NCBI GenBank assembly: GCA_046757025.1
Contig: JBHHXN010000145.1
Location: forward strand, 1-13,285
Length of the DNA: 13,285 nucleotides
DNA from: a bacterium
GTDB lineage: Bacteria; Zhuqueibacterota; Zhuqueibacteria; Oceanimicrobiales; Oceanimicrobiaceae
Direction: 5' to 3'
Under the pieces are notes generated by a model. The model worked only from the letters and a program-made list of their open reading frames with translations. It ran no database searches and had not been told where the DNA came from. The position numbers and the translations under genes were made by a program. Shown one piece after another: positions 3,130 to 13,285 of this stretch (position 1 is the first letter of the stretch; every line of letters begins with the position of its first letter).

Positions 3130-3783
3130 ATGGAAGATCCCAGAAATAAAACTAAGCCGAGTGAGGGCACGAAAGGTATTTCTCGGCGCCGCTTTTTAAA
3201 GGGTCTTAGTTTGACTTCCGTGGGCGTGGCCGCGGTGCCGGGCGAATCCATTTTAGCCCGTCTGCGCAACACCGGGCTGCTGTCTCTCGATGGCAAAGTG
3301 TTAGGTCCCGATGCCGTGAGCCTTGTTTTACATGTCAACCATAAAAAAAGGCCGGTGCGAGTGGAGCCGCGAATGACTCTGGCGGAAGTGCTGCGCGACC
3401 GATTGCAATTAACCGGCACCAAAGTGGGTTGTGATCGCGGTGCCTGCGGGGCGTGCACCGTCATCCTGGACGGCAAAGCCGTGAACTCGTGCATGACGCT
3501 GGCGGTGGATGCCGTGGGGTTGTCCATTGAAACCATCGAAGGGTTGAGCGCCGAGGAGGCGCCCAACAGCAAATTGCACGTGATTCAACAATCGTTTGTG
3601 GAGCACGACGCTTACCAGTGCGGGTTTTGCACTTCCGGGATGATCATGAGCTGCAAGAATCTCCTGGACGATAATCCCCACGTGGGCATGGAAGAGATCA
3701 AAATGGCCACCAGTGGCAATCTCTGTCGCTGCGGGACTTATCCAAAAGTGTTCGAAGCGATTGCGGCGGTAAGCGATGGTTAG
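3130..3783 (+). CDS. Xanthine dehydrogenase family 2x[2Fe-2S] subunit with Tat signal (PaoA/YagT-like)
   Basis: Twin-arginine motif SRRRFLK followed by a hydrophobic stretch. Fe-S motifs GTKVGCDRGACGACTV...NSC and QCGFCTSG...NLCRCGTY. Confidence 0.95.
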   Translation: MEDPRNKTKPSEGTKGISRRRFLKGLSLTSVGVAAVPGESILARLRNTGLLSLDGKVLGPDAVSLVLHVNHKKRPVRVEPRMTLAEVLRDRLQLTGTKVGCDRGACGACTVILDGKAVNSCMTLAVDAVGLSIETIEGLSAEEAPNSKLHVIQQSFVEHDAYQCGFCTSGMIMSCKNLLDDNPHVGMEEIKMATSGNLCRCGTYPKVFEAIAAVSDG

Positions 3784-3919: not shown

Positions 3920-6229
3920 ATGTCAAAAGAAGTGAAGCTCCAAGTGGGGGTGCAGGATAATTTGCATGAAGTGTCTGTGGAAATTCCTGACGACACGCCC
4001 AAACCCTGGGACGGCTCAGATAAATTAAAATACATCGGCAAGAGAGTTGCCCGGATAGATGGCCGGGATAAAACTACCGGCCGGGCCAAATACACCTTTG
4101 ACATGCAGCTTCCCGGCATGCTTCATGCCCGATTTTATCGCTCGCCTTATCCCGCTGCCTTGGTTAAAAGTGTCGACACTTCGCAGGCGGAAAAATATCC
4201 GGGGGTAAAAGCGGTGTTGTTGGTGCCAGATAAATTGCCTATGGAAGTTAGATTTGCCGGCCAGGAGATTTTGGCCATTGCGGCTGAAACTCCGCATCAG
4301 GCGGAAGAGGCCATGAAGCTCATAAAAATCGACTACGAAATCCGTGATTTTGTGGTCGATGTAGATGCTGCCAAAAAGCCGGAGGCGCCGCTGGTTTTTG
4401 ATAAGCGGGTGAAACAACAAACCACCGAAGGCGATGTTCCGGACGCAGCCTCGAAGGTGTCGCAATCCGGCAACATTCGCGGTCCGAATATCCGACCCCG
4501 AGACGCCACGCCGGAGAAAGTGGATGCGGCCATCGCGCAATCCGATGTGGTGGTGGAAGCGACTTACAGAACCCAGGTGCAAACGCACAGCGCTCTGGAG
4601 ACCCATGGCGTAGTGGCGCAGTGGCAAGACGAAGAACATTTAGAGGTCTGGGCGTCGACTCAGGGTACCTTCTCTGTTCGAAATGAATTGGCCGAGGTGT
4701 TTGAGCTGCCCAAAACCCATGTCCGGGTTGTGACGAAATACATGGGTGGCGGATTTGGGGCAAAGTTTGGCGCCGGCATTTATGGCGTCATGGCCGCGAA
4801 ATTGGCACGCAAAGCCAAAGCGCCGGTGCGGCTGATGCTCGACCGTAAAGAAGAGCATCTCGCTGTTGGCAATCGACCCAACTCGGTGCAAACGCTTACA
4901 TTGGGAGCCAGCAAAGACGGTAAATTAAATGCCATCAAATTGATTTCTTACGGTACCGCCGGCGTCGGTACCGGCGCCGGCACTTCGGGGCCGGCCAGAA
5001 ACATTTACGAGTGTGAAAATATCTACACCGAAGAATCCGATGTGTTCATCAACGCCGGGCCGGGCGCCGCTTTTCGTGCGCCAGGACATCCTCAGGGAGC
5101 CTTTGCCCTCGAACAGTGCATCGATGAATTGGCCTACAAATTGAAAATGGATCCCATCGAGTTTCGCAGAAAAAACACCCTGAATAATGAGATTCGGCAA
5201 GTTGAGTACGAGCTTGGCATGAAGAAAGTGGGCTGGGCGCGGCGCAATCCCAAACCCGCGGCCAGCAAAGGTCCCATTAAGCGCGGGCTGGGAGTGGCCA
5301 ATTCCGTCTGGTACTATTTTTACGGTACTGGCTACCAGGTGACCATTCAGGTGAATAGCGACGGCTCGCTGGAGCTCACCAACGGCGTGCAGGATATCGG
5401 CGGCGGCATCGGCACCATCATGGCCATGGTAGTGGCGGAAGAGCTGGGATTGCAACCCACCGATGTCAGCGTCAACATCGGTGATACCAATTTTGGACTG
5501 GGACCCGCCAGCGGCGGCAGTGTCACCACCGGCGCAATTACTCCGGCCACGCGCAACGCGGCTTATTTAGCAAAAATGAAAATGTTCGAGATTGCGGCGC
5601 CCATTTTAAAAGTGACGCCGGCAGAATTGAGCGCACAAGACGGTAAGATTTTTGTCACCAGCGATGCCTCCAGGAGTCTTACCTGGAAACAGGTCGCCTC
5701 CAAAATTACCGGCGAAACGTTTTCGGTCACAGGTGAACGTGTGAAGGATTACCGGGAAGTTAGTCCGCGTACCATCGCCGGTGTGCAGTTCGCTGAGGTT
5801 GAAGTGGACACCGAAACCGGCGTGGTGATGGTGCAGCGGGTAGTAGCGGTGCACGACTGCGGGCGCCCCATGGATCGTTTAACTCTGGAAAGCCAGATCA
5901 ACGGCGGCATCATTCAGGGCATCAGTTACGCTTTGTTTGAAGATCGCATTTTGGACCGCAACACCGGTATCATGGTGAATCCCAATCTGGATCAGTACAA
6001 GATCGCCGGCTCCCTGGACATCCCCCGGATCGAATCGATTATTTTGGATGTGAACCACGGTCAAAACAGCGCGGGCGCTATCGGCATTGGTGAGCCTGCC
6101 ACGGTGCCAACTTCTGCTGCCGTCGCCAACGCGGTATTTCACGCCATCGGTGTGCGAATCCGCGAATTACCGATGACGCCAAGCAAAATCCTGGCGGCCC
6201 TGGAATCCAGTCAAGGAGGTACCTCATGA
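3920..6229 (+). CDS. Xanthine dehydrogenase family molybdopterin-binding subunit (PaoC/YagR-like aldehyde oxidoreductase large subunit)
   Basis: 769 aa with RIDG.DKTTG.AKY, GGGFGAK, FRAPGHPQG, QDIGGG, SGGS, QINGGIIQG and GIGEP (catalytic Glu). AGGAG RBS upstream. Confidence 0.95.
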   Translation: MSKEVKLQVGVQDNLHEVSVEIPDDTPKPWDGSDKLKYIGKRVARIDGRDKTTGRAKYTFDMQLPGMLHARFYRSPYPAALVKSVDTSQAEKYPGVKAVLLVPDKLPMEVRFAGQEILAIAAETPHQAEEAMKLIKIDYEIRDFVVDVDAAKKPEAPLVFDKRVKQQTTEGDVPDAASKVSQSGNIRGPNIRPRDATPEKVDAAIAQSDVVVEATYRTQVQTHSALETHGVVAQWQDEEHLEVWASTQGTFSVRNELAEVFELPKTHVRVVTKYMGGGFGAKFGAGIYGVMAAKLARKAKAPVRLMLDRKEEHLAVGNRPNSVQTLTLGASKDGKLNAIKLISYGTAGVGTGAGTSGPARNIYECENIYTEESDVFINAGPGAAFRAPGHPQGAFALEQCIDELAYKLKMDPIEFRRKNTLNNEIRQVEYELGMKKVGWARRNPKPAASKGPIKRGLGVANSVWYYFYGTGYQVTIQVNSDGSLELTNGVQDIGGGIGTIMAMVVAEELGLQPTDVSVNIGDTNFGLGPASGGSVTTGAITPATRNAAYLAKMKMFEIAAPILKVTPAELSAQDGKIFVTSDASRSLTWKQVASKITGETFSVTGERVKDYREVSPRTIAGVQFAEVEVDTETGVVMVQRVVAVHDCGRPMDRLTLESQINGGIIQGISYALFEDRILDRNTGIMVNPNLDQYKIAGSLDIPRIESIILDVNHGQNSAGAIGIGEPATVPTSAAVANAVFHAIGVRIRELPMTPSKILAALESSQGGTS

Positions 6230-7218
6230 ATAAATTTGAATATGCTTTGCCCGATAAATTAAGCGATGTGTTTGGCTATTTAAAGCACCCAAATGCCTCC
6301 ATCAAAGCCGGCGGCATTGATCAGCTCGATTTGATGAAGGAAGGCATTGCGACGCCCGCGCGGCTGGTCAATATTCGCAATCTGAAAGAACTGCATTTTA
6401 TCAAATCTGATTCAAAACGGGGTCTGATCATCGGTCCCAATGTAACCCTTGGAGAGTTAGCCGAAGATAATAATCTGAAAGGCGCCTATCGTGCGCTCGC
6501 CCAGGCCGCGCACGGCACGGCCACACCTCAAATTCGCAATTCTGCCACGCTTGGCGGAAATATTTGTCAGCGCCCCCGCTGCTGGTATTTTCGCAGCAGC
6601 GATTTCAATTGCAGCCGTAAAGGCGGTGAAACCTGTTTTGCAATTGAGGGTGAAAATCAGTACCATGCCATTTTCGGTAACCAGGACGGCTGTGTCATCG
6701 TGCACCCTTCTGCCACCGCGGTGGCGCTGATGGCGCTGGATGCGAAGCTCAAAATCGTCTCTGAAAAGTCCGAACATGAAATCGCCATCGATAAATTTTT
6801 CGTGGCTCCGGCAGAGGACATCACGCGCGAAAATGTTTTGAAAGCCGGCGAAATGATTTCTGAAATCGTTCTGCCGCCGGCGCCGGAAGGGTTCATCAGC
6901 TTCTATTTTAAACAAAAAGAAAAACAGGCTTTTGACTGGCCATTGGCCGAAGTCGCAGTTGCCCTGACCATGAAAGACGGCAAATGCCGCAATGCACGCA
7001 TCGTGTTGGGAGCGGCTGCGCCGATCCCCTGGCGTGTGCCGGCTGCTGAAAAATTGTTAGTCGGGCAAGCCATTTCTGTAGAGCTTGCCAGGAAGGCCGG
7101 AAATGAAGCCGTAAAGACCGCCAATCCTTTGTCACTCAACACCTACAAAATTGCCGTTTTCAAAGCCGTTGTTTATCGTGCAATTTGTTGGGCAACCGGA
7201 ATAGACCCATTTGCATAA
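6226..7218 (+). CDS. Xanthine dehydrogenase family FAD-binding subunit with extra [4Fe-4S] insert (PaoB/YagS-like)
   Basis: 330 aa with KAGGID, ATPQIRNSATLGGN and the Cys insert RPRCWYFR...NC.RKGG..C...DGC..VHPS. ATGA overlap with the upstream stop; AAGGAGGT RBS. Confidence 0.95.
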   Translation: MNKFEYALPDKLSDVFGYLKHPNASIKAGGIDQLDLMKEGIATPARLVNIRNLKELHFIKSDSKRGLIIGPNVTLGELAEDNNLKGAYRALAQAAHGTATPQIRNSATLGGNICQRPRCWYFRSSDFNCSRKGGETCFAIEGENQYHAIFGNQDGCVIVHPSATAVALMALDAKLKIVSEKSEHEIAIDKFFVAPAEDITRENVLKAGEMISEIVLPPAPEGFISFYFKQKEKQAFDWPLAEVAVALTMKDGKCRNARIVLGAAAPIPWRVPAAEKLLVGQAISVELARKAGNEAVKTANPLSLNTYKIAVFKAVVYRAICWATGIDPFA

Positions 7219-7229
7219 AAGGAAATCTT

Positions 7230-7451
7230 ATGAAACATCCAAAACCCTCACAATGCCGACATCTTCGTACGAAGATGACATACGTTCCTGACCAGGAGAA
7301 CGCAGAAAACTGGCGCATGGTCGATTCCACCACCCGGCAATATTGGTGCCTCTGTACCATGTCAACGGCGGGCCCTGACAACGACCTGGTGACGCCGGAG
7401 CAATGCCAATCCCAGCGTAGTTGTTACAAAGAAGTGGATTTGATTGTTTGA
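7230..7451 (+). CDS. Small Cys-rich hypothetical protein (73 aa), probable metal-binding partner of the molybdoenzyme
   Basis: The ATG at 7230 follows an AAGGA RBS (7219-7223) and starts 11 bp after the FAD-subunit stop. Sequence MKHPKPSQCRHLRTK...YWCLCT...GPD...PEQC..QRSCY, with 5 Cys. Confidence 0.8.
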   Translation: MKHPKPSQCRHLRTKMTYVPDQENAENWRMVDSTTRQYWCLCTMSTAGPDNDLVTPEQCQSQRSCYKEVDLIV

Positions 7452-7549: not shown

Positions 7550-7728
7550 GAGACTGTGTGAAAAAGTGATATCGCAACTAAAAACCCGATGTACTATTAT
7601 TGTCATCCCGTAACCGCGGGATCTTTTTAAGAAACAGCACTTTACTTCAAGACTAAAAAGATTCCTCCTGCATGTCCCGCAAGGCGGGGAATGACAAAAG
7701 CCCGGAAGTTGACTTTTCACACAGGCTC
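7550..7728. mobile_element. MITE-like element with IS1182-like termini, 4-bp TSD and internal REP-like hairpin
   Basis: TIRs GAGACTGTGTGAAAAAGT (7550-7567) and ACTTTTCACACAGGCTC (7712-7728), flanked by direct repeat TGAA (7546-7549, 7729-7732). Inner arms TGTCATCCCG (7601-7610)/GGGAATGACA (7687-7696) and GGGATCTTTTTA/TAAAAAGATTCC. The IS family link is from recalled resemblance only. Confidence 0.75.
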
Positions 7729-12076: not shown

Positions 12077-13285
12077 ATGAACACTGCAAAGGAATCCATT
12101 TTCATCGCGATCTTGACTGCGATCACACCCATCGTTTCAGGATCGAAGTTGATGAATCGATCAATGATATCGATCGCTATCGGCGTTCTGCTCGCGATGC
12201 CGTTGGCATTAATCGCACAAGAGGACTCGGCGGGGACAACGTTCTCCAGGTATGCCCGATATGGCGCCGATGTATGGGCAAGAAACCCCTCGGCCCTGAT
12301 AGCTGGCGAAGGTAAGGCCTGTATCAGTTGCCACACATCCTTACCGTATGCGTTGGTCGAGCCGCTCCTAGATGGCGATTATCCTGCCTACGATGATATG
12401 ATCGGGAATATTAACAACCGCATCCTGACCTGGTCCGATAACACACCCTGGTACTCCGACAATAAATTGGAGCAGATGGCTGCGCTCGCGAATCTCCCGC
12501 CGGATGCATTCAAGGAACCGCTTATCTCGGAGCAGTCGCGCAGTATCGAAGCGGTTTTCAACGCCCTGATTCGTGCAACGCACGACGCCTATTCCGGCTT
12601 GCCCCCCCCAGCAAGAAACACGCGCGGCATTCAGGAATATGTGGGAGAGACAAATAAAGCGCGGTCCGACCGCCGGTAGATGGCTTTGGTCCAAGTCGTA
12701 CCTGGTTCCCTGGGATGTGGCTGACGCAGATATCTGGGGTACATCTTTGGCTGGTGTGGCGGCAACTATCTTTCCAGGCCTGGCGCCGGAGAAAAACCTG
12801 CGGGCACTATACGCGACTTTGAGAGATGCTATTGCCCGTGACGACATCAGCCTGCACGCTAAGTCTGCGATCTTGTGGTGCGATGCAGAAACGGGCGGAC
12901 AGATTCTTGAAAGTGATGCTGCAAAGCGACACGCGGCAAAACTACTGGCCTTGCAGCGTGCCAACGGCGGCTGGGCTTTGCGCGACCTCGGGCCCTGGCC
13001 AGACTGGGAAGGTAGTCGTTCCGACTGTTGCCAGAAGCGAGAAGTGCGCTCAGATGCCTACGCGACCGGTTTTGTGACTCTTGTGCTGGCGCGCGCCGAC
13101 AGATACTTGTCCGATGAGAATCGAGCCCAACTGGAAAAGGCGATTGCGTGGATAGATCGGGAGCTGGCGAATCCGTACCCGGACGGGCCACGGTACAACA
13201 GGCACGACAGTATGGATGCCGAATTTCCGGAGTTCAGGAACAACCTCTATACGAATGCCGGACACATGTGGGCGTTTCTGGCGAA
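12077..13285 (+). pseudogene. Exported CxxCH + QW-repeat protein (squalene-hopene cyclase/prenyltransferase-like fold), frameshifted at a C8 tract; 3' end outside window
   Basis: AGGAGG RBS at 12066-12071, hydrophobic N-terminus and CISCHTSLPY (12320-12349). After CCCCCCCC (12602-12609) the +1 frame is open from 12609 to the window end. It encodes AFRNMWERQIKRG..AGRW.W, LLALQRANGGW, SDAYATG and AIAWI. C7 instead of C8 gives one ORF of about 400+ codons. Confidence 0.8.

Follow-up and report, generated by a model that had tools for sequence, protein, structure and literature searches.

Xanthine oxidase family enzymes are described as assemblies of three kinds of structural modules, aided by XdhC and MocA helpers. 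In E. coli, the modules of PaoABC are encoded in the order paoA-B-C, i.e., the 2Fe-2S subunit (S), the FAD-binding subunit (M), and the molybdenum-cofactor-binding subunit (L). PaoABC (PDB 5G5G/5G5H) and 5Y6Q, which we take to be a Methylobacillus-type aldehyde oxidase, both have a twin-arginine (Tat) signal on the 2Fe-2S subunit and none on the Mo and FAD subunits. In both, the FAD subunit has an insert with four cysteines, which are presumably the ligands of a [4Fe-4S] cluster. In 4-hydroxybenzoyl-CoA reductase (1RM6), the architecture is again S/M/L and the FAD subunit also has a Cys insert; this enzyme is cytoplasmic and is not known to carry a Tat signal. Hitchhiker export has been shown for PaoABC, with PaoB and PaoC riding on PaoA (PMC4273604, accessible part). 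According to the accessible part of PMC3958847, PaoABC is a heterotrimer, and no additional small protein is described there. PaoD belongs to the XdhC family and is not among the subunits of mature PaoABC (accessible parts of PMC2997495 and PMC3958847).

The operon studied here lies in a stretch of 13,285 nucleotides of bacterial DNA (the window) and is read in the order S-L-M, followed by a small gene for a 73-amino-acid protein (Table 1). As in PaoABC and 5Y6Q, it is the S subunit that carries a Tat signal (TIGR01409 score of 18 against a cut-off of 16.7; L and M gave no match), and a pattern search of 101 related S subunits recovered the Tat motif in 95. The best PDB matches of L and M were PaoC (E value of 2e-81 for L), PaoB, and 5Y6Q. 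However, L and S remain far below the cut-offs of the E. coli models (367 bits against 1180 for L with NF041671, the PaoC model; 164 against 322 for S with the PaoA model), the gene order differs from that of PaoABC, and L lacks a loop that PaoC has. All three subunits also stay below the cut-offs of TIGR03193-5 for 4-hydroxybenzoyl-CoA reductase. The enzyme works like PaoABC yet is not PaoABC, and its Tat signal suggests a periplasmic location.

Table 1. Features of the S-L-M operon and its small gene in the window
Feature	Positions	Strand	Details	Basis
S subunit, 2x[2Fe-2S], PaoA-like	3130..3783	+		Fer2, Fer2_2, TAT_signal
Twin-arginine signal of S subunit	3181-3201	+	SRRRFLK	TIGR01409 above cut-off
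L subunit, molybdenum-cofactor binding, PaoC-like	3920..6229	+		MoCoBD_1, MoCoBD_2, Ald_Xan_dh_C
Short-loop segment of L (30 aa)	5147..5236	+	residues 410-439	alignment; gap against PaoC
M subunit, FAD-binding	6226..7218	+		FAD_binding_5, CO_deh_flav_C
PaoB-type four-Cys insert of M	6580-6693	+	C119, C129, C137, C156	aligned to PaoB 5G5G, 5Y6Q
Ribosome-binding site AAGGA	7219..7223	+	6 nt 5' of ATG	sequence
73-aa four-cysteine protein	7230..7451	+	C9, C40, C59, C65; T43; G48-P49-D50; R63	sequence, homologue alignments
Terminator-like hairpin + T-run	7605..7622	+	3' of small gene	

A family of small four-cysteine proteins

The small gene starts 11 bp past the TAA of the FAD subunit gene, behind its own AAGGA ribosome-binding site, and its product has neither a signal peptide nor a hydrophobic stretch (maximum 12-residue hydropathy of 0.5); this bears out the initial annotation on the gap, the ribosome-binding site, and the absence of a signal peptide. 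The hairpin scan of the window found no terminator-like site on the + strand between 6581 and 7508. Since the window holds 12 terminator-type sites against 7.9 ± 2.6 in shuffles, the hairpin 3' of the small gene is a weak indication that this is the last gene of the operon.

The reading frame had been taken for a real gene, and rightly so. A homologue search, proposed with the initial annotation, went from 5 proteins to 84 and then to 1,055 clusters (50% identity, E ≤ 0.001), with E values down to 5e-25; all 12 pairs of small genes compared, which were picked by hand, show purifying selection (pN/pS of 0.05 to 0.31), and the starts and the motif are conserved across homologues. A chance open reading frame, which the shortness of the gene and the absence of a Pfam or NCBIfam family match might suggest, is ruled out by these data, and its probability is negligible.

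The Cys-rich motif proposed at the outset held in its core. Among 147 representatives drawn from the homologues listed, beyond those found earlier, C9, C40, C59, C65, and R63 are each present in 147, G48 and D50 in 146, and the aromatic neighbors of the cysteines in 133 (W39) and 137 (F/Y66). The fifth cysteine and the histidine of the motif did not hold: position 42 is mostly R or K, and H11 occurs in just 71 of the 147. In a separate set of 203 family members, the four cysteines are found in 198 to 203. Their spacing is x25-38 (mode 29), then x18, then x5-6, and the proteins are 63 to 186 amino acids long (median, 77). No Tat motif occurs in any of the 147 representatives, and a hydrophobic stretch occurs in one.

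Scans of the 73-aa protein and of 41 or 113 family members against Pfam, NCBIfam, and PHROGs gave no family match, PDB sequence searches gave none except for one chance match (E value of 1.6), and a plasmid search was empty. The ESM Atlas yielded three unnamed clusters, without Pfam at 0.90. The AlphaFold models of the small protein (pLDDT of 62.5 and 66.3) consist mostly of loops, with short strands. Foldseek (PDB, viral) and a wide VIA-align search found no fold match for a query model with a pLDDT of 66 and a pTM of 0.46, a blank that does not show the fold to be novel. A literature search found no description of this family in titles and the starts of abstracts, with subscription papers and supplements mostly outside its reach, so that absence from print is not established. 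The family is a real, widespread, and unnamed accessory protein of a variant of a known enzyme system.

HiPIPs and small four-Cys zinc knots resemble the small protein in having about 70 amino acids, four cysteines with aromatic neighbors, and little regular secondary structure. Unlike them, it has no CxxC pair (its cysteines are separated by x~29, x18, and x5) and no signal peptide, and the sequence and fold searches gave no match. The four cysteines could also form two disulfides, and the middling quality of the AlphaFold models would suit a metal-free, disulfide-bonded protein or a redox/thiol sensor that would be coregulated with the operon without playing a direct structural part. We consider this very improbable: the protein has no signal peptide of its own with which to reach an oxidizing compartment, and its strict co-distribution with one clade of Mo subunits, described below, suggests a physical partnership.

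Genomic linkage and the XdhC slot

The initial annotation viewed the small gene as a companion of a Tat-signal xanthine oxidase family operon, and the invariant cysteines and the neighborhoods of the homologues agree. Among the 86 best genome loci returned for the small gene, eight of which were first found via M, an M gene lies upstream within 1.3 kb in 69. All 13 further genome loci have the small gene behind M. In 21 loci anchored on the FAD subunit, the small gene is just downstream in 15, 2 loci end at or inside M, and 4 have no small gene. Within one metagenome subfamily, the small gene follows M in 63 of 72 loci, which are close kin and not independent, and the other 9 have at most 252 bp upstream; the usual order there is xdhC-mocA-S-L-M-small gene.

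The linked loci come from five phyla. A 5-sequence profile found carriers in 39 of 167 genomes of the window's own phylum; among the genomes sampled from the phyla of particular loci, carriers number 55 of 251 (an Acidobacteriota locus), 26 of 151 (Armatimonadota), 11 of 151 (Gemmatimonadota), and 2 of 201 (Desulfobacteraceae). Every positive genome, including that of the window, has one copy. The Acidobacteriota-phylum genome counts and the 86-locus counts include the unpublished genome G195 (locus L065), on which no claim rests alone.

XdhC/PaoD (PF02625) resembles the small gene in being an accessory gene after or near a xanthine oxidase family operon and in having a conserved cysteine (PMC2997495, accessible part). 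It had been proposed that the small gene fills the slot of PaoD/XdhC, with no xdhC or mocA gene seen in the window. Pfam and NCBIfam confirm that there is none in the window; elsewhere in the genome, however, xdhC is present on contig C67 and a mocA-like gene on C20. The small gene co-occurs with xdhC in the same locus in at least 15 of the 86 loci (a lower bound, as the analysis reaches just 1.5 kb to each side), in 8 of the 13, where xdhC comes next, and in 17 of the 72. Hence, the slot hypothesis fails: a replacement of PaoD is ruled out by the frequent presence of xdhC/mocA in the same operon and of xdhC elsewhere in the window's genome. The proteins differ as well. The XdhC frame of the window's genome has about 395 amino acids and its own domains, none of which is present in the 73-aa protein; the small family lacks the XdhC_CoxI and XdhC_C domains that are typical of XdhC chaperones of about 250 to 400 amino acids, the 73-aa protein has no Pfam match, and no XdhC match was found among 41 members.

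These neighborhoods bear on another role, that of a cytoplasmic maturation factor which binds briefly to the immature enzyme or to XdhC/MocA, aids cofactor insertion or Tat proofreading, and is absent from the mature enzyme. In several lineages, xdhC comes immediately after the small gene, frequently accompanied by mocA, as the co-occurrence counts in the 86 and 13 loci reflect. No M gene lies within 1.3 kb in 17 of the 86 loci; 5 of these 17 adjoin xdhC, and the gene persists with neither M nor xdhC beside it in the other 12, one of them a doubtful match. In locus L035, it adjoins xdhC while M sits on another contig. The single copy per genome, the absence of an export signal, and the Moco biosynthesis genes that adjoin the small gene in up to 19 metagenome loci (names assigned from sequences) also suit a maturation factor. 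However, XdhC and MocA are already present, the sister enzymes with the longer L loop do without the small protein, and it resembles neither XdhC nor any other chaperone family that has a name. On balance, we regard a maturation factor as unlikely, though a serious possibility.

No convincing fusion of the small domain to S, L, or M was found, and a search of longer proteins for the domain was empty, which is weak evidence. Long open frames that looked like fusions were ruled out as overlaps with the M or L gene in another frame. In a single record of 186 amino acids, P0143, the small domain is preceded by a short fragment of L and by unrelated residues; this record is probably a misassembly or rearrangement and not a true fusion.

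Several lineages have neighbors of their own. In an Acidobacteriota subclade (L076, L079, L080, L082-L088, L090-L093, L105), a DUF1326 protein with a signal-peptide-like start is encoded 3' of the small gene, often followed by a second conserved, secreted-looking protein; this subclade includes lineages whose FAD subunit lost three of the four cluster cysteines. In Armatimonadota (L064, L096, L101-L104, L106, L109-L113, L115, L116), a CopD-like membrane protein of about 150 amino acids with two conserved histidines adjoins the small gene and stays beside it even apart from the S-L-M operon; it is a possible heme or metal membrane partner of the small protein. A multiheme cytochrome c of about 740 amino acids adjoins the small gene in L032, L036, L037, and L158, directly downstream in the last of these. 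In the metagenome subfamily (L221-L279), genes that we named from their sequences as moaA-, mog-, moaE-, and moaC-like are found close to the small gene, most of them encoded on the other strand.

The Mo subunit clade and the function of the small protein

In the window's phylum, a PaoB-type M subunit is present in 62 of 167 genomes, including 38 of the 39 carriers of the small gene; the 39th, without a PaoB-type M match, has an L subunit of the short-loop type defined here. We compared 16 carrier operons of this phylum with 24 apparent non-carriers, one of which was rescued by a larger profile. In trees calculated with FastTree, the L subunits of carriers form one clade (support of 0.99 to 1.0), save one long branch; in the M tree, non-carriers are interspersed within the carriers. 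All L subunits of carriers lack a segment of about 11 residues after DP(I/L)EFR..N that non-carriers keep and that holds a conserved P-Y-T/S motif (D-x(4-5)-P-Y-T/S); PaoC has this segment too, in a longer form.

In a check on Acidobacteriota, L matched in 91 of 251 genomes; of the regions analyzed, 40 represent non-carriers or second operons, and 20 represent hand-picked carriers. Among 119 Mo subunits, 57 have a short loop (29 to 34 aa) and 62 a long one (38 to 51 aa). The small gene accompanies 52 of the 57 short-loop subunits, in 42 cases as an adjacent gene, one of which is truncated where its contig stops, and in 10 elsewhere in the same assembly; it is linked to none of the 62 long-loop subunits, a set that includes 3 outgroups and a few operons with early contig ends. 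In four short-loop operons, no small gene was found: G048 (85% complete), G087 (the contig ends in M), G165 (59% complete), and G395. Two genomes, G271 and G399, carry both types; in these, the small gene follows the other S-L-M operon, and none is linked to the long-loop one. All five genomes tested with a stand-alone small gene still have a short-loop L elsewhere.

The 57th short-loop entry, left uncoded, is a second Tat-signal S-L-M operon of the window's genome (G000 contig C248:2429-6112), whose L and M are 46% and 43% identical to those of the window. Its contig ends 45 bp past M, so that the assembly could lack a second small gene. The operon at locus L217 (G174:C1:10400-16500) is very divergent: S and L share a single open frame, the loop is short, and M is followed by the small gene. 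Its position outside the main short-loop clade may be due to a second origin or to a long-branch artefact. Locus L171 (G217:C16:100-13700) has three tandem long-loop Mo subunit genes, two S, and two M, without a small gene.

How far can the loop be read as a sign of contact? The tree shows 2 changes in its length, one of them on the long and unreliable G174 branch, and an independent-pairs test of loop loss gave one concordant and four uninformative pairs (p = 1). The carrier and non-carrier clades differ at dozens of other L positions as well, and the loop may be a mere lineage marker. The co-distribution of loop and gene represents one or two evolutionary events and is not independent proof; it fits co-origin and mutual dependence and does not by itself prove contact.

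The four-Cys insert of M follows a different pattern. Long-loop operons keep all four cysteines in 45 of 45 cases, against 27 of 54 for short-loop operons, in which 21 M subunits lack the fourth cysteine and 6 keep the first only. The constraint on this cluster is relaxed in part of the carrier clade, without a one-to-one tie to the small gene; a strict tie to cluster loss is ruled out by the window enzyme and by 49 of 49 members of the gene-carrying metagenome subfamily, in all of which the cluster is intact. The relaxation is compatible with the small protein being an Fe-S electron carrier, HiPIP- or ferredoxin-like, that would pass electrons from the FAD subunit on to an acceptor in the periplasm or membrane and lessen the need for the M cluster. 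Four invariant cysteines with conserved aromatic neighbors would suit such a carrier, as would the His-bearing four-helix membrane protein and the multiheme cytochrome c next to the gene in some lineages. Moreover, the electron acceptor of PaoABC is unidentified in the accessible part of PMC3958847, and an Fe-S center in the small protein would bear on this question for PaoABC-like enzymes in general. Against a carrier stand the missing CxxC, the absence of a match to a Pfam Fe-S family or a PDB sequence, the blank fold searches, the intact M cluster in the window enzyme and the metagenome subfamily, and the fact that the gene tracks L more than M. We consider an electron carrier improbable.

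The reading that we favor, tentatively and at somewhat less than an even chance, is that the small protein is a metal-stabilized fourth (delta) subunit that docks on the Mo subunit and is co-exported with the complex. Tat substrates fold in the reducing cytoplasm, where disulfides do not form; for this reason, and because the model has little regular structure, the four cysteines would bind one metal center (Zn or Fe-S). The protein would bind L near residues 410-439, replacing the lost loop in trans, and would hitchhike on the Tat signal of the S subunit, in the way that PaoB and PaoC ride on PaoA. The association with a loop-less Mo subunit tilts the reading toward a bound subunit; the gene tracks L, on whose tree the carriers are united apart from one long branch, more than M, among whose carriers the non-carriers are nested. 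On the other side, we counted the few changes in loop length with the uninformative pairs test, the four short-loop operons in which the gene was not found, and the 17 of 86 loci without M nearby, 5 of them by xdhC. The single copy per genome, also in the window's genome with its second short-loop operon, likewise speaks against a subunit, as do the absence of a convincing fusion and the description of the solved relatives as three-subunit enzymes in the accessible part of PMC3958847.

A bolder version, which we think rather doubtful, holds that a widespread periplasmic branch of the xanthine oxidase family is a four-subunit machine in which a small Fe-S protein of undescribed fold replaced the L loop, rides the Tat pathway, and gives a new electron exit. 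Such an exit would explain the decay of the four-Cys cluster of the FAD subunit in half of the branch.

An unnamed family of 1,055 clusters that is tied to one clade of Mo subunits points to a component missing from the picture of xanthine oxidase family enzymes; it spans the window's phylum, Acidobacteriota, Armatimonadota, Gemmatimonadota, and others. The lost loop of L provides a concrete prediction for the docking site, and if the protein is a true subunit, Tat hitchhiking would grow from three chains to four. Whichever reading holds, expression of these enzymes should include the small, easily overlooked gene.

Other reading frames of the window deserve brief mention. An ankyrin-like frame at 2519-2930 appears to continue in another frame and is probably frameshifted. 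Two overlapping frames at 12077-13283, the second of which weakly matches squalene cyclases (E value of 6e-4, far below the cut-off), are probably one frameshifted gene of the secreted type. The PLP aminotransferase at 472-1647, with GntC as its best NCBIfam match (227 bits against a cut-off of 415), is an ordinary class I/II aminotransferase.
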